Virus record (IMG/VR): IMGVR_UViG_3300025138_000048
Coordinates: 1 to 56,054 of that record
Strand: one strand, 5' to 3'
Source of the DNA: a virus
Lineage: Duplodnaviria; Caudoviricetes
Length of the DNA: 56,054 nt
Shown: positions 4,024 through 45,877 of the stretch, piece by piece
How the letters are laid out: each line of letters opens with the position of its first letter
How positions within the stretch are numbered: the first letter of the stretch is position 1
Translations under genes and position numbers: made by a program
Notes under the pieces: model-generated
Databases searched by the model: none
What the model was told of the DNA's origin: nothing
The model's input: the letters and a program-made list of their open reading frames with translations, nothing else

Positions 4024-4053
4024 GTTGGATTATTTAATTAAATTTCGTATATT
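4024..4053 (+). promoter_or_regulatory. Bacteroidota sigma-A-type promoter (TTGG-N15-TTCGTATATT)
   Basis: GTTGG at 4024 and TTCGTATATT at 4044; same spacing as more than 10 other copies. Confidence 0.7.
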
Positions 4054-7897: not shown

Positions 7898-8300
7898 TTG
7901 GTTAAATGAAATTACTGTTAAGAAATCTCCAACATCCTACTTTTCTCAAAAAGATTGGGATGATTGGAATTCTTATATGGTTCATAGATTTTTATCTATG
8001 AATATAAGTTATATTGACATAGTTAATATTGCTCAAAAATTTCACCCAACTGATAAAAAAGGTATTTATAATTTTTATAAAGAATATTTACCTAAGAAAA
8101 AAATATGGAATAAATATATTAAAAACCAAAATAAAAAAGATATAAAAGATTTATCTAAAATAATAGCTGATTATTTAAAAATTGGATTTAATGAAGCTGG
8201 TTCGTATATTCCCCTATTAGGGAAAAACGAAATTAAAGAAATATTAATTAGTATAGGATTAGAAGATAAAACTATTAAAAAACTATTAAAAACAATATGA
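7884..8300 (+). CDS. Putative clamp loader small subunit (T4 gp62-like)
   Basis: F-x-WLN-x-I, YMVHRFLSM, Y-x-FY-x3-LPKK pattern; near the gp44-like gene. Confidence 0.6.
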   Translation: MTVFNWLNEITVKKSPTSYFSQKDWDDWNSYMVHRFLSMNISYIDIVNIAQKFHPTDKKGIYNFYKEYLPKKKIWNKYIKNQNKKDIKDLSKIIADYLKIGFNEAGSYIPLLGKNEIKEILISIGLEDKTIKKLLKTI

Positions 8301-8524
8301 AACCAGAATTATTTAAAATGTTAAAAGATATGGCAGAAGCCCAAAAATCAAAAGCATTATTAACCTTAAACTTATTATCAGAACACCCTGCAGGAATTGG
8401 CGATCATTCAACAGAAGATTTTTATCAAAATGCTGATGAAGCTTTAACTATGCTAGTTGATGCTGATGATAAATTAGAAACATTAAAAAAATATTTTTCA
8501 CCAAAAAATAAAGTAGTAAAATGA
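8297..8524 (+). CDS. Hypothetical protein
   Basis: 75-aa ORF with HPAGIGDHS; ATGA-coupled. Confidence 0.7.
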   Translation: MKPELFKMLKDMAEAQKSKALLTLNLLSEHPAGIGDHSTEDFYQNADEALTMLVDADDKLETLKKYFSPKNKVVK

Positions 8525-8943
8525 GTGACATAATTAAAAAATATGAAGAGGAGATGAGTGATATTAATTCTACCACTGTAAAAAATATTAAGGGTAAATT
8601 ATCTAAAACTGATGTAGAAATAAAGTTTGAGGAAGAATATCCAATATTAGCAGAGGAATTTAAAAACATTCAAGATGAAATGTATAAAATGTTTGCAGCT
8701 AAACATATGGATTATGGCTTACAAAACATTTCATTAGGTGGTGATTTATCAAATAAAAATGATAAATTATATTCATTAACAGGTTTAGCTATTAGATTAA
8801 CAGATAAAATTTCAAGATTAAGAAATTTGTTAATAAATGGTAAAAATTATGTTAAAGGAGAAGGTATGGAAGATACATTTATTGATGTAGCTAATTACGG
8901 AATAATTGGTATGTTAGTAGGTCGTAATAAATGGAAAAAATAG
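8521..8943 (+). CDS. DUF1599-like (nucleotide-modification-associated) protein
   Basis: KHMDYG, IRLTDKISRL, EDTFIDVANYGII. Confidence 0.75.
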   Translation: MSDIIKKYEEEMSDINSTTVKNIKGKLSKTDVEIKFEEEYPILAEEFKNIQDEMYKMFAAKHMDYGLQNISLGGDLSNKNDKLYSLTGLAIRLTDKISRLRNLLINGKNYVKGEGMEDTFIDVANYGIIGMLVGRNKWKK

Positions 8944-26579: not shown

Positions 26580-26609
26580 AACATCTTCTTAAAAACTTAT
26601 GCGAAAGAA

Positions 26610-26661
26610 TTTGGTTCCCCAAAATACCTTTCGTATATTTATGTCATAAATAAAGGTTATG
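26610..26661 (+). promoter_or_regulatory. Early promoter and leader
   Basis: TTTGG(26610)-N15-TTCGTATATTT; AAATAAAGGTTATG at the start codon. Confidence 0.75.
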
Positions 26662-36280: not shown

Positions 36281-36825
<545 letters not shown>

Positions 36826-41666: not shown

Positions 41667-41800
41667 TGGATAAGCGTATTAAAGAAGTATTATATAATGA
41701 ATTACATACTATACTTCAGTATGTTGAAGATGGTGGCAGAGATGAAGCTGTTGCTAAATTAGTTGATTTAATTAACAGGTTAAGTTTCGATAAAATATGA
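41666..41800 (+). CDS. Small hypothetical protein (44 aa, not in ORF track)
   Basis: MDKRIKEVLY...; coupled at both ends. Confidence 0.55.
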   Translation: MDKRIKEVLYNELHTILQYVEDGGRDEAVAKLVDLINRLSFDKI

Positions 41801-41964
41801 AAAAATTAGCAATAATAGGTGGTTTAAGTATGATGACAATGGGTGGTGGTTATATGATTCATCACAAACAGTCAATTACACCTAAATTTAATTTAAACCC
41901 AAACACATTAGCAATTGCTAGTGGTGGGTTTTTTGTAGCATTAGGTTTAACGTATAAATTTTAA
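41797..41964 (+). CDS. Small exported/membrane protein ending in a beta-signal-like LGLTYKF (55 aa, not in ORF track)
   Basis: MKKLAIIGG...FFVALGLTYKF. Confidence 0.55.
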   Translation: MKKLAIIGGLSMMTMGGGYMIHHKQSITPKFNLNPNTLAIASGGFFVALGLTYKF

Positions 41965-41965
41965 T

Positions 41966-42142
41966 ATGAGACGATCTTATCTTAATGCATATAATTTATT
42001 TGTAGGTAAAACTACAATTGATGAATTAGCAAATAAAGGTGAATTTTATTTACCTGTGGATCATGATAACAAAGATATGTTATTAGATTATTTTGAAGGT
42101 ACTGAAGAGTATGAAAAGTGTAGTGAATTAGTTAAAATATAA
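41966..42142 (+). CDS. Small protein with C-terminal EEYEKC motif (58 aa, not in ORF track)
   Basis: ...DYFEGTEEYEKCSELVKI. Confidence 0.65.
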   Translation: MRRSYLNAYNLFVGKTTIDELANKGEFYLPVDHDNKDMLLDYFEGTEEYEKCSELVKI

Positions 42143-42145
42143 ATA

Positions 42146-42229
42146 ATGAGTAAAGAATTAAAACAATCTATCGCCATAGTATTAGTTGGGATGATTTCCT
42201 TAATTGGTTTAATATTAATCTTTTTATAA
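42146..42229 (+). CDS. 27-aa single-TM micropeptide
   Basis: MSKELKQSIAIVLVGMISLIGLILIFL. Confidence 0.45.
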   Translation: MSKELKQSIAIVLVGMISLIGLILIFL

Positions 42230-42230
42230 A

Positions 42231-42383
42231 ATGAAGCGTAGATATAGAGGGTGTGAATTAGATTCACCAACATATAGACAAGTGGCAGCTGAAATGGCTA
42301 AAGAGCGTGCTAAACAGGGATTACATTCCACAATGAGCATGCCAATTAATGAGTATAAACCAAAACGTGGTAAACATAAATAA
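42231..42383 (+). CDS. Small basic protein (50 aa)
   Basis: MKRRYRGCELDS...KPKRGKHK tiles between its neighbours. Confidence 0.5.
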   Translation: MKRRYRGCELDSPTYRQVAAEMAKERAKQGLHSTMSMPINEYKPKRGKHK

Positions 42384-42384
42384 T

Positions 42385-42633
42385 ATGGCTAAACAATTAG
42401 ACAAAGACATGATGAGAATGATGTCTATAACCGAGCGATTTAAATATCAAAACGATCTCAAGCGTATGAGATTTAATATGAGTGAAATTAAAAAAGAGCA
42501 AGAAGAAGTTAAATCAAAATATACTCAATCAAACGAACCATGGATAGATGAGGATAGAAGTGAGTATGATGATTTCAGTGACGGTGGAGATAGGAATGAC
42601 AGTGGTAATGGGGATGATTCAAACGAATATTAA
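42385..42633 (+). CDS. Hypothetical protein with acidic tail
   Basis: ORF track 42349; ATG 42385 is the more likely start. Confidence 0.55.
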   Translation: MAKQLDKDMMRMMSITERFKYQNDLKRMRFNMSEIKKEQEEVKSKYTQSNEPWIDEDRSEYDDFSDGGDRNDSGNGDDSNEY

Positions 42634-42649
42634 TTAAAACTAAACGACG

Positions 42650-42808
42650 GTGGAGATATATTATGGTTTATTAGGTGTTCCGCTTTTATTCGCTTTTGCC
42701 TTTGCATGGTGTTGGATTGAAGAGCGTTCTAGGGCGAAGGCTAAACGTAAGTATGACAAACAGATGGCTAAGTATGACACGTGGCGAAGAATAAACAATG
42801 GTGTGTAA
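42650..42808 (+). CDS. Small membrane protein (52 aa, GTG start)
   Basis: YGLLGVPLLFAFAFAWCW TM segment followed by a basic tail. Confidence 0.45.
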   Translation: MEIYYGLLGVPLLFAFAFAWCWIEERSRAKAKRKYDKQMAKYDTWRRINNGV

Positions 42809-42974
42809 CAAACATACAATGGGGAATATAAACCGGAACTACACTCCCATTAACCCCTTGCCTGTGCGCATCCAACCCTTACACTAGGTAACGAATATAT
42901 ACTTATGAACCGCAAATCGCGACGCATGTTCACAAATGGTCACAAATAATGCGTGGAAAGCGTTGTGAACAATG

Positions 42975-43004
42975 CTTGGATACCGCAAAAATTGTTCGTA
43001 TATT
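42975..43004 (+). promoter_or_regulatory. Sigma-A-type promoter with no convincing downstream ORF
   Basis: CTTGG(42975)-N15-TTCGTATATT; preceded by the inverted repeat TGTTCACAA(42927)/TTGTGAACA(42963). Confidence 0.7.
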
Positions 43005-43009
43005 GGGGT

Positions 43010-43520
43010 ATAAGCAAAAAAGACGCGCATTATGTGGTGAATGGTGATGGACTATGTGGTAATGAGCGCGACGGTGGAGCAGACTACGACGGTGGACATT
43101 ACTATACCAGCACCTTAGCCGTACCTTATACTTACAATTACATATCCTTATTATACATTAATAGCTACTTACGTAGCACCTAGGTATACCTTGGTGGGTA
43201 CCTTATCGGTAATAATGCTCACCGCGGTATGAACTGGATTATATATCATCACCATAATATCCCCTACACACATATATAGAATAGCAGCCGCCGTACCGCG
43301 TACGTACATAATAATACCCACGGTGCGCGGATATCCATCGACGCGTGTATGTGCGTAAAAAGGTTGTAGCGGGCTTCATAGATCGTACACTAAAATAGAG
43401 CATCGATGGTATATACAAATATATGCTCATGCAAGCCCCGTAGTAAATAAAGGAATCAAAAAATCGTAGTGGCGCATTCGTAGAGTACTAAAAAATTTCA
43501 CTATCGACAATGTATATACT
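43010..43520 (+). other. GC-richer, palindrome-dense non-coding element (candidate ncRNA, origin or packaging region)
   Basis: Clear compositional shift, many perfect 6-10 bp palindromes, long-range complementary segments, no credible ORF. Confidence 0.6.
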
Positions 43521-43693
43521 TATATAAAACGGTTAATAGCAGAGTCATATGTAAATTGCTAGTAACAGCAGTTAAACACATATCTATCAATATGAAACAT
43601 AAAACAGACATCAGCCCTTTAATATATTTAATTATAATGGTTGTCGTATTTGCAACAGCACTTTAAAAGCTTTTGAAGGCTTCCGGTAAAGTA

Positions 43694-43761
43694 CTTGGTT
43701 CCCCGAAATATCTTTCGTATATTCACGGCATATTAATAATTAAAAACAAATAAAAGTTATG
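43694..43761 (+). promoter_or_regulatory. Early promoter and leader
   Basis: CTTGG(43694)-N15-TTCGTATATT; AAATAAAAGTTATG. Confidence 0.75.
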
Positions 43762-44574
43762 ATTAATTCAGATGATTTACAAACAGCAAAGTATTTAACT
43801 AAAGAAAATATTGCTTCACTTGCACCAGCAGTGTTTGCAACTAAACCAAGTAGTGATGTTTCGGAGAAATACACACACATTCCAACAGAAAGAGTTATTG
43901 ATGATATGGAATTATTAGGTTGGAAGCCAATTGAAGCAAAAGAGGTAAAAGCAAGAAAGAAATCAACTATGGGATTTCAAAAGCATTTATTAGTATTCAG
44001 AAATGATGATGTAGTAATTAATGGAGAAGATGGTGATACAGTATTTCCACAAATACTAATGACTAACTCTCATGATGGTAAAAATTCATTTACATTTGCC
44101 GCAGGTTTATATAGATTAATATGTTCAAATGGTCTTGTAATTGCAGATACAAAATTTGAAGACATTAAAATGCGTCATATGGGTTATACGTTTGAAGATC
44201 TTCAAGCATTAATTAAAGATATGGTTGAAAAATTACCTCTAACCGTAGAGTCAATGAATAGAATGAAAGCTACAGAAATGGAGGAACTTGCAATTTTAGA
44301 TTTTGCTAAAGAAGCTTTAAATACAAGGTTTACAAAGAAAGAAATGAATAGAATTCAAATCGATCTTAAAGAACTTACAAAGCCAGTTAGAAACGAAGAT
44401 AAAGGATCAGATCTTTGGTCAGTATTTAATGTAGTTCAAGAAAAAATCGTTACAGGTGATTTTGATTACACAATAGGTACTAAACATAGAAAAGCTCGTG
44501 AAATTAAAAACTTCAAGCAAGATATGAAGATTAATAAAGAGTTGTTTAAAGTAGCCTTAGAATATGCAGCATAA
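43759..44574 (+). CDS. DUF932/DUF945-family phage/plasmid protein
   Basis: KYTHIPT, NSHDG, GLYRLICSNGL, LWSVFNVVQE. Confidence 0.85.
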   Translation: MINSDDLQTAKYLTKENIASLAPAVFATKPSSDVSEKYTHIPTERVIDDMELLGWKPIEAKEVKARKKSTMGFQKHLLVFRNDDVVINGEDGDTVFPQILMTNSHDGKNSFTFAAGLYRLICSNGLVIADTKFEDIKMRHMGYTFEDLQALIKDMVEKLPLTVESMNRMKATEMEELAILDFAKEALNTRFTKKEMNRIQIDLKELTKPVRNEDKGSDLWSVFNVVQEKIVTGDFDYTIGTKHRKAREIKNFKQDMKINKELFKVALEYAA

Positions 44575-45017: not shown

Positions 45018-45713
45018 ATGGCAACATATTCATCAGGATCAATGAGCGGAGGAGGAACACCAGGAGAGGTATTAACCGCGGCTACTACTTATACATTCGC
45101 GTTACAAAATAGAGACGGTCAATACTCACAAGTAGGAACGTCATATCTTGCTTTAGATGGCGACGGAATCGCTACTCAACAAGCTGGAGGTACAATTATT
45201 AAATCCGGACCACTTAATTTAGGATCAATTCCACTTTCCAACACTGTTTCTGGAATAACTGGCGGCCCCTACACATTTACTTTTGATGTTGAGGGAGATT
45301 TATTTGGAGGTGGAGCTATTATATCTCTTACATCGGCTGGAGGTGCTATTGTAAGTGCTATGGTTACAAACGGAGGATTAGCTTTTCAAACCGGTGATGG
45401 TATTACAATTAGTCAAAATGATTTGCAAGCTGCTGGCTTTGCTAATGCCAATGCTTCTCAACAAATAGATATTTTTGCCAACTTCATCAATGACAACATT
45501 GGTGATCCCCAATCTATTACTGGCTCATTTGGTGGATTCTTAAACTCCATCAATCAATCATCATTAGTTGAAGAACCTACTAAATTTTCAATTATGATGC
45601 CTAACTCTGGCTCAATTGGTGGTGCATTTGAATTTACCCCTACTACAACCGTACCTGCTAATAGCTACGCTATTCGCGCAACTGGTAATTTTGAATTGAG
45701 TATAACGGCGTAA
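45018..45713 (+). CDS. Gly/Ser/Thr-rich hypothetical protein, possibly virion structural
   Basis: Beta-rich, low-charge composition; ATATTTATAAC upstream. Confidence 0.6.
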   Translation: MATYSSGSMSGGGTPGEVLTAATTYTFALQNRDGQYSQVGTSYLALDGDGIATQQAGGTIIKSGPLNLGSIPLSNTVSGITGGPYTFTFDVEGDLFGGGAIISLTSAGGAIVSAMVTNGGLAFQTGDGITISQNDLQAAGFANANASQQIDIFANFINDNIGDPQSITGSFGGFLNSINQSSLVEEPTKFSIMMPNSGSIGGAFEFTPTTTVPANSYAIRATGNFELSITA

Positions 45714-45792
45714 TTGCGATATATACGTATGTAAGTATTAATATATGTAGAAGGGAGACCTTTTTAGAAGATTGAAAGCTTATGCAAAAAAA

Positions 45793-45877
45793 TTTGGTTC
45801 CCCGAGATATCTTTCGTATATTTACGGAGTAAATAAGGTGCAAAAAGCACAAGTATTAATTAAAAATAAAGGTTATG
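45793..45877 (+). promoter_or_regulatory. Early promoter and leader with hairpin
   Basis: TTTGG(45793)-N15-TTCGTATATTT; GTGC-AAAAA-GCAC; AAATAAAGGTTATG. Confidence 0.75.

Follow-up and report, generated by a model that had tools for sequence, protein, structure and literature searches.

What is the role of a phage promoter that is followed by hundreds of bases without a gene? This question is raised by the viral record IMGVR_UViG_3300025138_000048, of which 56,054 bases were analysed (hereafter the window; CheckV completeness 35%). The window has a GC content of about 28%, and nearly all of its open reading frames (ORFs) are on the + strand. Because it encodes a DNA polymerase, a GroEL-like chaperonin, a DNA ligase, glycosyltransferases, and baseplate wedge proteins, it is assigned to a large T4-like myophage. 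The source clade consists of uncultured marine T4-like myophages, the nearest cultured relative of which infects Flavobacterium. Upstream of a DUF932 gene, a predicted early promoter fires into about 580 nt without a conserved ORF. A preliminary description of the sequence proposed that 42927-43590 encodes a large structured non-coding RNA (ncRNA) of a new class or, alternatively, is a replication origin or a packaging locus. As described below, the region is conserved, intergenic, and putatively control- or origin-like, and has no match in Rfam or among GenBank phages. Judged by its sequence, it looks like a composite single-copy intergenic control region in which a promoter, hairpins, and sequence-specific sites are combined. 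The reading favoured here, with a probability of about 0.38, is a DNA-level cis site for a sequence-specific protein, the favoured case being a transcription-activated replication origin.

The conserved part of the locus was defined with its relatives. A search with the DUF932 protein gave 108 relatives, of which 80 loci were kept, and a 17-base core pattern gave 65 further stretches. When these 145 loci were searched by nhmmer with a profile of the region, 84 hits were obtained, corresponding to 56 distinct sequences in viral contigs. The locus is conserved, and homologues are common in related phages. While 43017-43698 aligns almost whole in about 20 loci, the block common to all is 43283-43430 (~150 nt). 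This block, the core, is the most widely conserved part of the segment and is unstructured and non-coding. Its invariant words are TACCCAC, GTCCAT, GCGTGTATATG, and CATCGATTGTATATAC..ATAT, and the spacers between them vary in length. In 45 sequences, 18 of 125 window positions are invariant and another 18 are nearly invariant. With a model of the core built on sequence alone, one copy is found in each of four complete or nearly complete relatives (E 2.7e-27 to 3.6e-14), the value of 3.6e-14 being reached in a phage whose DUF932 protein is just 56% identical. The same model finds none in Flavobacterium phage vB_FspM_immuto (hereafter immuto), the best match of the DUF932 protein among cultured phages (45.9% identity). 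In G001, a complete 164-kb relative, no ORF-free gap is larger than the one that holds the core (681 nt). What directly borders the core is not the same in distant relatives, and the core thus behaves as a self-standing element. In a blastn search of 42650-43760 against GenBank phages no match is found, and a 21-base core pattern searched against 185,579 bacterial species genomes hits only a single 1016-base contig of a metagenome-assembled genome.

A second conserved component is a motif of 20-26 nt with the consensus CGA-N(1-4)-TATATAC-WW-AT, which is built round the palindrome GTATATAC. There are four copies in the window, three of them at this locus and all three on the + strand. Copy 1 (CGA-TATATAC-TT, 42889-42910) forms the end of block A (TTAACCCC..GCGC..CCAACCC..TAGGTAACGA, 42850-42912, +), in which an alignment of 20 distinct sequences shows invariant islands. 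Copy 2 (CATCGAT-GG-TATATAC-AAATATAT, 43401-43424) is the 3' end of the core, and copy 3 (TATCGAC-AATG-TATATAC-TTATATAA) is found at 43502-43527. G001 has two copies at this locus; a third regular-expression hit at 74309 is inside an ORF and reads TATATAT, not TATATAC. Because the motif is locus-specific, the idea that it represents a general promoter class was rejected. The fourth copy in the window (CGA..TATATAC, 45717) is in 45018-45875, where it lies in the intergenic stretch behind a 231-aa ORF without a family (45018-45713); this stretch also includes a promoter cassette. The GC content of this ORF is about 0.41, far above the genome level.

A DNA-level cis site would be the simplest explanation of these features, because the element is conserved as words, does not fold, does not encode a protein, occurs once per genome, includes repeats specific to the locus, and receives transcription from an early promoter. 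Core and motif copies would act through their sequence, most likely in the form of double-stranded DNA to which a sequence-specific protein binds. The site may be a lytic replication origin, or a control site linked to an origin, that transcription from the early promoter would activate or prime. With its G-rich non-template strand, the DNA behind the promoter would favour an RNA-DNA hybrid, and the RNA itself would be a primer, an activator, or a by-product rather than a folded machine.

No conserved or credible ORF is found in 42809-43592 (~780 bases). Each of the six frames of 42800-43770 has 13-26 stops. The longest mechanical ORF in the segment (76 aa, GTG start, 42953-43183) is broken by stops and indels in relatives, and a 25-aa ORF at 43041 is not conserved in them. 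Column entropy by codon position is 0.90/0.91/0.97 in the core, compared with 0.54/0.29/1.03 in the DUF932 gene used as the control. A coding function of the segment was ruled out by the stops in six frames and by the absence of codon periodicity in the core. When the genes that relatives carry at this place were used in tblastn searches, no protein remnant was found in the window (best E 0.93), apart from a spurious L021 ORF, which overlaps the core and is interrupted by a stop in the window. The segment had been called the longest non-coding stretch of the window. This holds if small conserved genes are counted as coding, but under a filter of at least 60 aa for ORFs the region is split and 41667-42348, which is full of ORFs of 44-58 aa, ranks first.

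The sharp rise in GC and CpG noted in the preliminary description is borne out, and both GC and CpG reach their maximum for the window in the segment. GC content is 0.39-0.45 over 42600-43499, compared with 0.20-0.35 ahead of that stretch, and 0.404 in 42810-43592, compared with 0.282 in the remaining window. Among all 783-nt frames of the window, GC is highest in the one starting at 42698. CpG occurs 44 times in 42810-43592 (observed/expected 1.38) and 424 times in the other 55 kb (observed/expected 0.40). The words CGCG, GCGC, GTAC, and TCGA are 7- to 57-fold denser in the segment than elsewhere in the window. This local excess of CpG in a CpG-depleted genome points to selection on CG words such as CGTAC, CGCG, and TCGA. 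Enrichment of palindromes was also considered and rejected: there are 22 6-mer palindromes, compared with 16.2 +/- 4.2 in dinucleotide shuffles, and 22 are reached in 59 of 500 shuffles, so that the difference is not significant. As a separate observation, the cultured relative is listed in the available part of PMC10516641, on 7-deazaguanine DNA modifications, and CpG is depleted (0.40) in the window outside the segment.

The promoter (42975-43004, +) is a host sigma-A-type early promoter cassette of the form CTTGG .. TTCGTATATT, with a predicted transcription start at about 43011. It had been described as a consensus promoter without a credible ORF behind it. It does not have the sigma-70 consensus (9 of 12 positions match), and in 42300-44000 sites found by the sigma-70 rule are not above chance (7, compared with 8.1 +/- 2.6 in shuffles), but it is true that no conserved gene follows. 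The promoter is credible because it is a member of a repeated cassette family. About 12 such cassettes of the form (T)TTGG .. TTCGTATATT(TAC) exist on the + strand of the window; examples, which have an A-rich upstream element, are found at 4044, 21929, 26630, 29863, 33327, 40434, 42995, 43714, and 45813, and matches of 50-57 nt at the level of the cassette exist at 26604-26653 and 45772-45827. All cassettes with a -33-like word have an ORF of at least 62 aa within 7-110 nt downstream, except the one at 42995, whose sole downstream ORF has 25 aa and is not conserved. Of 12 window-type sequences (counting the window), 10 have the promoter at this position. In flavobacteria, the -33 element of sigma-A promoters is TTTG. 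The -7-like box of the cassettes resembles the flavobacterial sigma-A box TAnnTTTG, as given in a part of PMC9723704.

Several complementary words had been noted around the promoter and behind it. The 9-bp inverted repeat TGTTCACAA / TTGTGAACA (42927-42971) is present just 5' of the promoter, its right arm being within the upstream element of the cassette, but inverted repeats overall are no more frequent than expected by chance. In 1.2 kb there are five exact 9-mer inverted pairs and one exact 10-mer, compared with two to three expected 9-mers (4^-9 x position pairs). The 120-nt window 42930-43049 has a minimum free energy (MFE) z-score of -3.49 on the + strand and -2.66 on the - strand. The TAATGCG/CGCATTA bracket exists (42943-42953 / 43026-43036; 11 nt, 91%), and so do the long-range complements ATGGTGATG (43041) and CATCACCAT (43247). 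The nested 3' domain, GGGCTT (43371)/AAGCCC (43433) enclosing GAGCAT (43398)/ATGCTC (43423), is likewise present as sequence, but its pairing is not conserved. In the 22 sequences that retain the region of the 3' arm, these helices pair in 55.7% of cells, compared with 51.1% in shuffles, and the inner helix in 41.8%. L017, L021, L024, L058, and L091, in which the 3' arms have been deleted outright, lack the region and were omitted from this test.

The initial transcribed region (43011-43112, +) is G-rich and C-poor. Its sequence is poorly conserved while its composition is conserved. The G/C counts per 30 nt from the start are 9/4, 12/1, and 13/7, and after +90 nt they are 4/10, 0/6, and 5/7. 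G exceeds C in the first two 30-nt bins (60 nt) in all ten sequences with a located promoter, after which the composition becomes C-rich. Within the region are two copies of the word GACGGTGGA and a single 5-bp helix (43089-43093 paired with 43118-43122). The mean MFE z-score of the region over 12 sequences is -0.35. GACGGTGGA occurs four times in the window, all nearby (42580, 42646, 43070, and 43088), and GTGGTAATG is found at 42602 and 43056. These copies suggest that the G-rich leader arose long ago by partial duplication of the junction where the gene for an acidic protein meets that for a membrane protein. The C-rich stretch that follows (43113-43264, +) includes a stem-loop domain (43164-43177 and 43180-43237). 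Within the transcribed part, 43130-43249 is the only clearly stable window (z -2.67). The 81 nt of 43160-43240 have a z-score of -3.25 in the window and a mean of -2.04 over 12 sequences, of which four have values above -0.1; the stems are in differing registers between relatives, and the domain is fast-evolving.

Could the RNA itself be the functional product? The main alternative, a regulatory RNA of little fold, which would be either a small RNA of about 230-260 nt or a long leader of the mini-gene and the DUF932 gene that follow, is somewhat doubtful. The small RNA would consist of a G-rich single-stranded 5' part and the 3' stem-loop domain at 43164-43237, and the leader would be controlled by termination or processing; as 43100-43330 is C-rich and G-poor, it would be suitable for the loading of Rho. 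The promoter, a family member kept in relatives, the C-rich composition after +90 nt, and the stable windows of the stem-loop domain are consistent with this explanation, but the differing stem registers and the four sequences that lack stability are not. Contigs from RNA-type libraries of two studies cover the domain (X20, 43113-43264, 0 differences; X19, 43116-43265, 1 difference), one of these libraries also holds 42865-43022, and in two other studies DNA contigs span about 43062 to about 43925 and cross the ends of the RNA-type contigs. This is a weak hint that the part 43113-43265 accumulates as RNA. It is weak because the contigs reveal neither strand nor ends nor level, the runs had been selected for holding this stretch, the two DNA runs likewise have coinciding contig ends, and the X19 contig, from a library only guessed to be RNA, has an 11-nt loose end at 43265. 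The genes flanking the stretch are not covered in X19 and X20, which is unusable since the runs had been chosen for the stretch. In relatives that carry a gene of 166-172 aa here, hairpins are found at the equivalent place, directly behind that gene. One of them pairs in 98.2% of cells (CG/UG/UA and GU/AU/GC types) in an alignment of 10 of the 13 carriers (L005, L109, and L145 were omitted because they align poorly); its G-U pairs point to constraint at the RNA level, but 89 of 500 shuffles equal it. These hairpins look like rapidly turning-over gene-end hairpins and not like parts of one large RNA. Against a regulatory RNA, no intrinsic terminator is predicted on the + strand of the region, which has no U-run, and the core could pair with other transcripts of the window over chance 11-mers only, with no complementarity of 12 nt or more. 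A regulatory RNA would also leave the unstructured invariant core and the locus-specific motif copies unexplained. A large structured ncRNA of a new class (~43010-43590) is very unlikely and largely refuted. It was suggested by the enrichment of GC and CpG in an AT-rich genome, as seen in structural RNA genes, by the promoter in front, by the presence in RNA-type libraries, and by a few local helices with some covariation. GOLLD and ROOL are likewise long GC-richer non-coding stretches of phages, but here neither an Rfam match nor a conserved structure is found. At the gathering score, the sole Rfam hit in the window is a tRNA at 36752; at E up to 10, 42600-43800 gives three chance hits (E 1.7-8.6), all on the - strand. 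The segment has no tRNA or tmRNA signature, as had been noted, and Rfam families are absent from it as well. MFE z-scores of 43011-43592 (582 nt) are -0.33 on the + strand and +1.19 on the - strand, no better than shuffles, and the mean over 45 cores is -0.13 (45 of 46 eligible sequences were used; L120 contains N). Over the homologues, no conserved structure supported by covariation is found. RNAalifold predicts 0 pairs for the 45 cores (0.0 kcal/mol over match columns) and one 5-bp helix for 12 upstream homologues (-3.28 kcal/mol over 397 columns). When all column pairs are scanned, 21 stacked runs are obtained, compared with 1.55 in column shuffles, but all of them are within the self-complementary TA-rich/ATCGAT motif columns, and no non-trivial helix is left.

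Another explanation is that these are ordinary gene-boundary signals in a hyperplastic region, namely promoter and terminator cassettes of the PeSL kind, together with conserved flanks retained as recombination anchors for the exchange of small gene cassettes. PeSL promoter-terminator cassettes of T4-like phages, described in parts of PMC2839356 and PMC4122927, are also repeated early-promoter cassettes bordering small variable genes. This explanation would be in line with the roughly 12 near-identical cassettes on the + strand, the 50-57-nt matches among them, and a pair of additional genes (92-94 aa and 166-172 aa) that 9 of the 12 loci holding both flanking genes have between block A and the core; this two-gene cassette is missing in the window, L017, L021, and L024. 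In L013 it is found at 1964-2248 and 2360-2860, with equivalents in L005, L016, L019, L029, and L032, and the relatives are otherwise collinear. The two genes have no informative family, the 166-172-aa protein being phrog_3754, of unknown function. Unlike PeSL cassettes, however, the core exists in one copy per genome and the motif copies are locus-specific; many copies are found for the promoters only. Simple gene borders would not explain that the core is still found at E 3.6e-14 when DUF932 identity is 56%, or that words of 5-6 nt are invariant in 45 sequences, and we regard them as an unlikely explanation. A packaging (pac) site or genome terminus would also be single-copy, sequence-specific, and non-coding, but is highly improbable: in a 171,684-base relative with direct terminal repeats (IMG/VR class) the core is at 136,083-136,200, 35 kb from the nearest end, which speaks against the packaging locus that the preliminary description had offered as an alternative. 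T4-like phages package their DNA by headful and are not known to use a specific pac site.

How well does the favoured reading, a DNA-level site that is possibly a transcription-primed origin, compare with known origins? T4 has promoter- and R-loop-dependent origins, with oriE on an early-mode promoter, as described in a part of PMC3016281. As in oriF and oriG (middle-mode promoter) and oriE, we find an intergenic promoter of a T4-like phage that reads into untranslated DNA, and an RNA-DNA hybrid could be stabilised by its G-rich non-template strand. A promoter reading into the candidate origin is seen at the motif level only, and the anatomy of oriF and oriG is not found. Unlike in T4, the GC of the window peaks in the DNA that follows the promoter, conservation falls on a sequence-specific core lying 270-420 nt downstream, and each genome has a single copy while T4 has several origins. 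As in iteron-type origins of phages and plasmids, direct copies of a motif, here of 20-26 nt, are confined to one single-copy non-coding region, but just three dispersed copies exist, about 510 and 100 nt apart and not in an array, and no initiator gene is recognised beside the element. An iteron-like anatomy is found in immuto (NC_055915, L150) in the same genomic neighbourhood: ACCCGT repeats with a 12-bp period form two clusters (8096-8174 and ~8517-8700 of that locus), with an A/G-rich non-coding gap between them, 2.4 kb downstream of its DUF932 gene. This hints that origin-like elements live in this neighbourhood.

Several results weigh against an origin. The GC skew shows no anomaly: there is no origin signal in the window and no polarity switch in G001, where the skew is positive in 41 of 42 bins. 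This test is uninformative because nearly all genes are on one strand. Directly behind the promoter there is no A+T-rich unwinding element (GC 0.45 in 42900-43099 and 0.425 in 43000-43199), Tandem Repeats Finder detects no tandem iteron array at the locus, and Pfam and PHROG searches recognise no initiator gene among the neighbours. According to the part of PMC3016281 cited above, there is little homology among T4 origins and no requirement for a specific sequence in their R-loops, and thus the invariant islands are not predicted by the T4 model. The equivalent of motif copy 3 sits 1-24 nt ahead of an ORF start in distant relatives, a position which a specialised promoter or operator would fit equally well. 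Finally, the core columns are on average as variable as the third codon positions of the neighbouring gene, a comparison made on differing sequence sets. A more specific claim, that the core and its three motif copies are a previously undescribed, sequence-read single-copy element that marks this clade and serves as a lytic origin, which an early G-rich transcript would prime or open, or as the gene of a protein-binding unstructured RNA, is rather doubtful. Literature searches on the cultured relative and on phage structured RNAs, supplementary tables excluded, found nothing on this locus, and in the available main text of PMC10690425, which reports more than 10,000 candidate viral structured RNAs, DUF932, T4-like phages, and Flavobacter are not mentioned. 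As a side observation on G001 (L157-L165), 132-144 kb is a foreign-looking island with a GC content of 0.38-0.45 and minus-strand ORFs, the rest of the genome being nearly one-stranded.

The segment is bordered by small genes and further signals. Its left neighbour is the gene of a 52-aa membrane protein with a stop at 42808. About 15 nt past this stop is a stem-loop (42822-42848, +; a 10-pair hairpin, listed on the - strand), which probably serves as a terminator or 3'-end stabiliser of the upstream transcript. In relatives, alignments judged by eye have a hairpin of differing sequence at this place. On the right, the preliminary description had let the segment end at 43590 in plain non-coding DNA, which needs correction, as a conserved mini-gene for a 24-aa single-pass membrane peptide (MKHKTDISPLIYLIIMVVVFATAL) follows at 43593-43667 (+). 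A homologue of 24-27 aa exists in 13 of 16 aligned sequences, the window included, and the changes are conservative and synonymous. The next sigma-A-type promoter cassette (43694-43723, +) drives the DUF932 gene (43759-44574, +; Pfam E 4.5e-32). Apart from DUF932, no function is assigned to the neighbours by Pfam or PHROG. An assembly chimera was rejected. The sequence is held by runs from 12 studies, DNA contigs of two independent studies cover 43062-43925 and 43065-43922 without differences (30 of 30 depth bins covered), and the order of elements is identical in independent viral contigs.

The negative result on RNA structure matters beyond this locus. It was the alignment of homologues together with shuffle controls that removed the structured-RNA reading here, and enrichment of GC and CpG, a promoter, and scattered complements are not sufficient for calling a structured RNA. 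Should the core prove to be an origin or a master site of early control, it would offer an easily recognised, compact marker for widespread uncultured marine phages. It would also give origin mapping in non-model T4-like phages a concrete target. If the core and its motif copies are indeed an undescribed element, they would be a first handle on replication or early control in this large group of uncultured phages.

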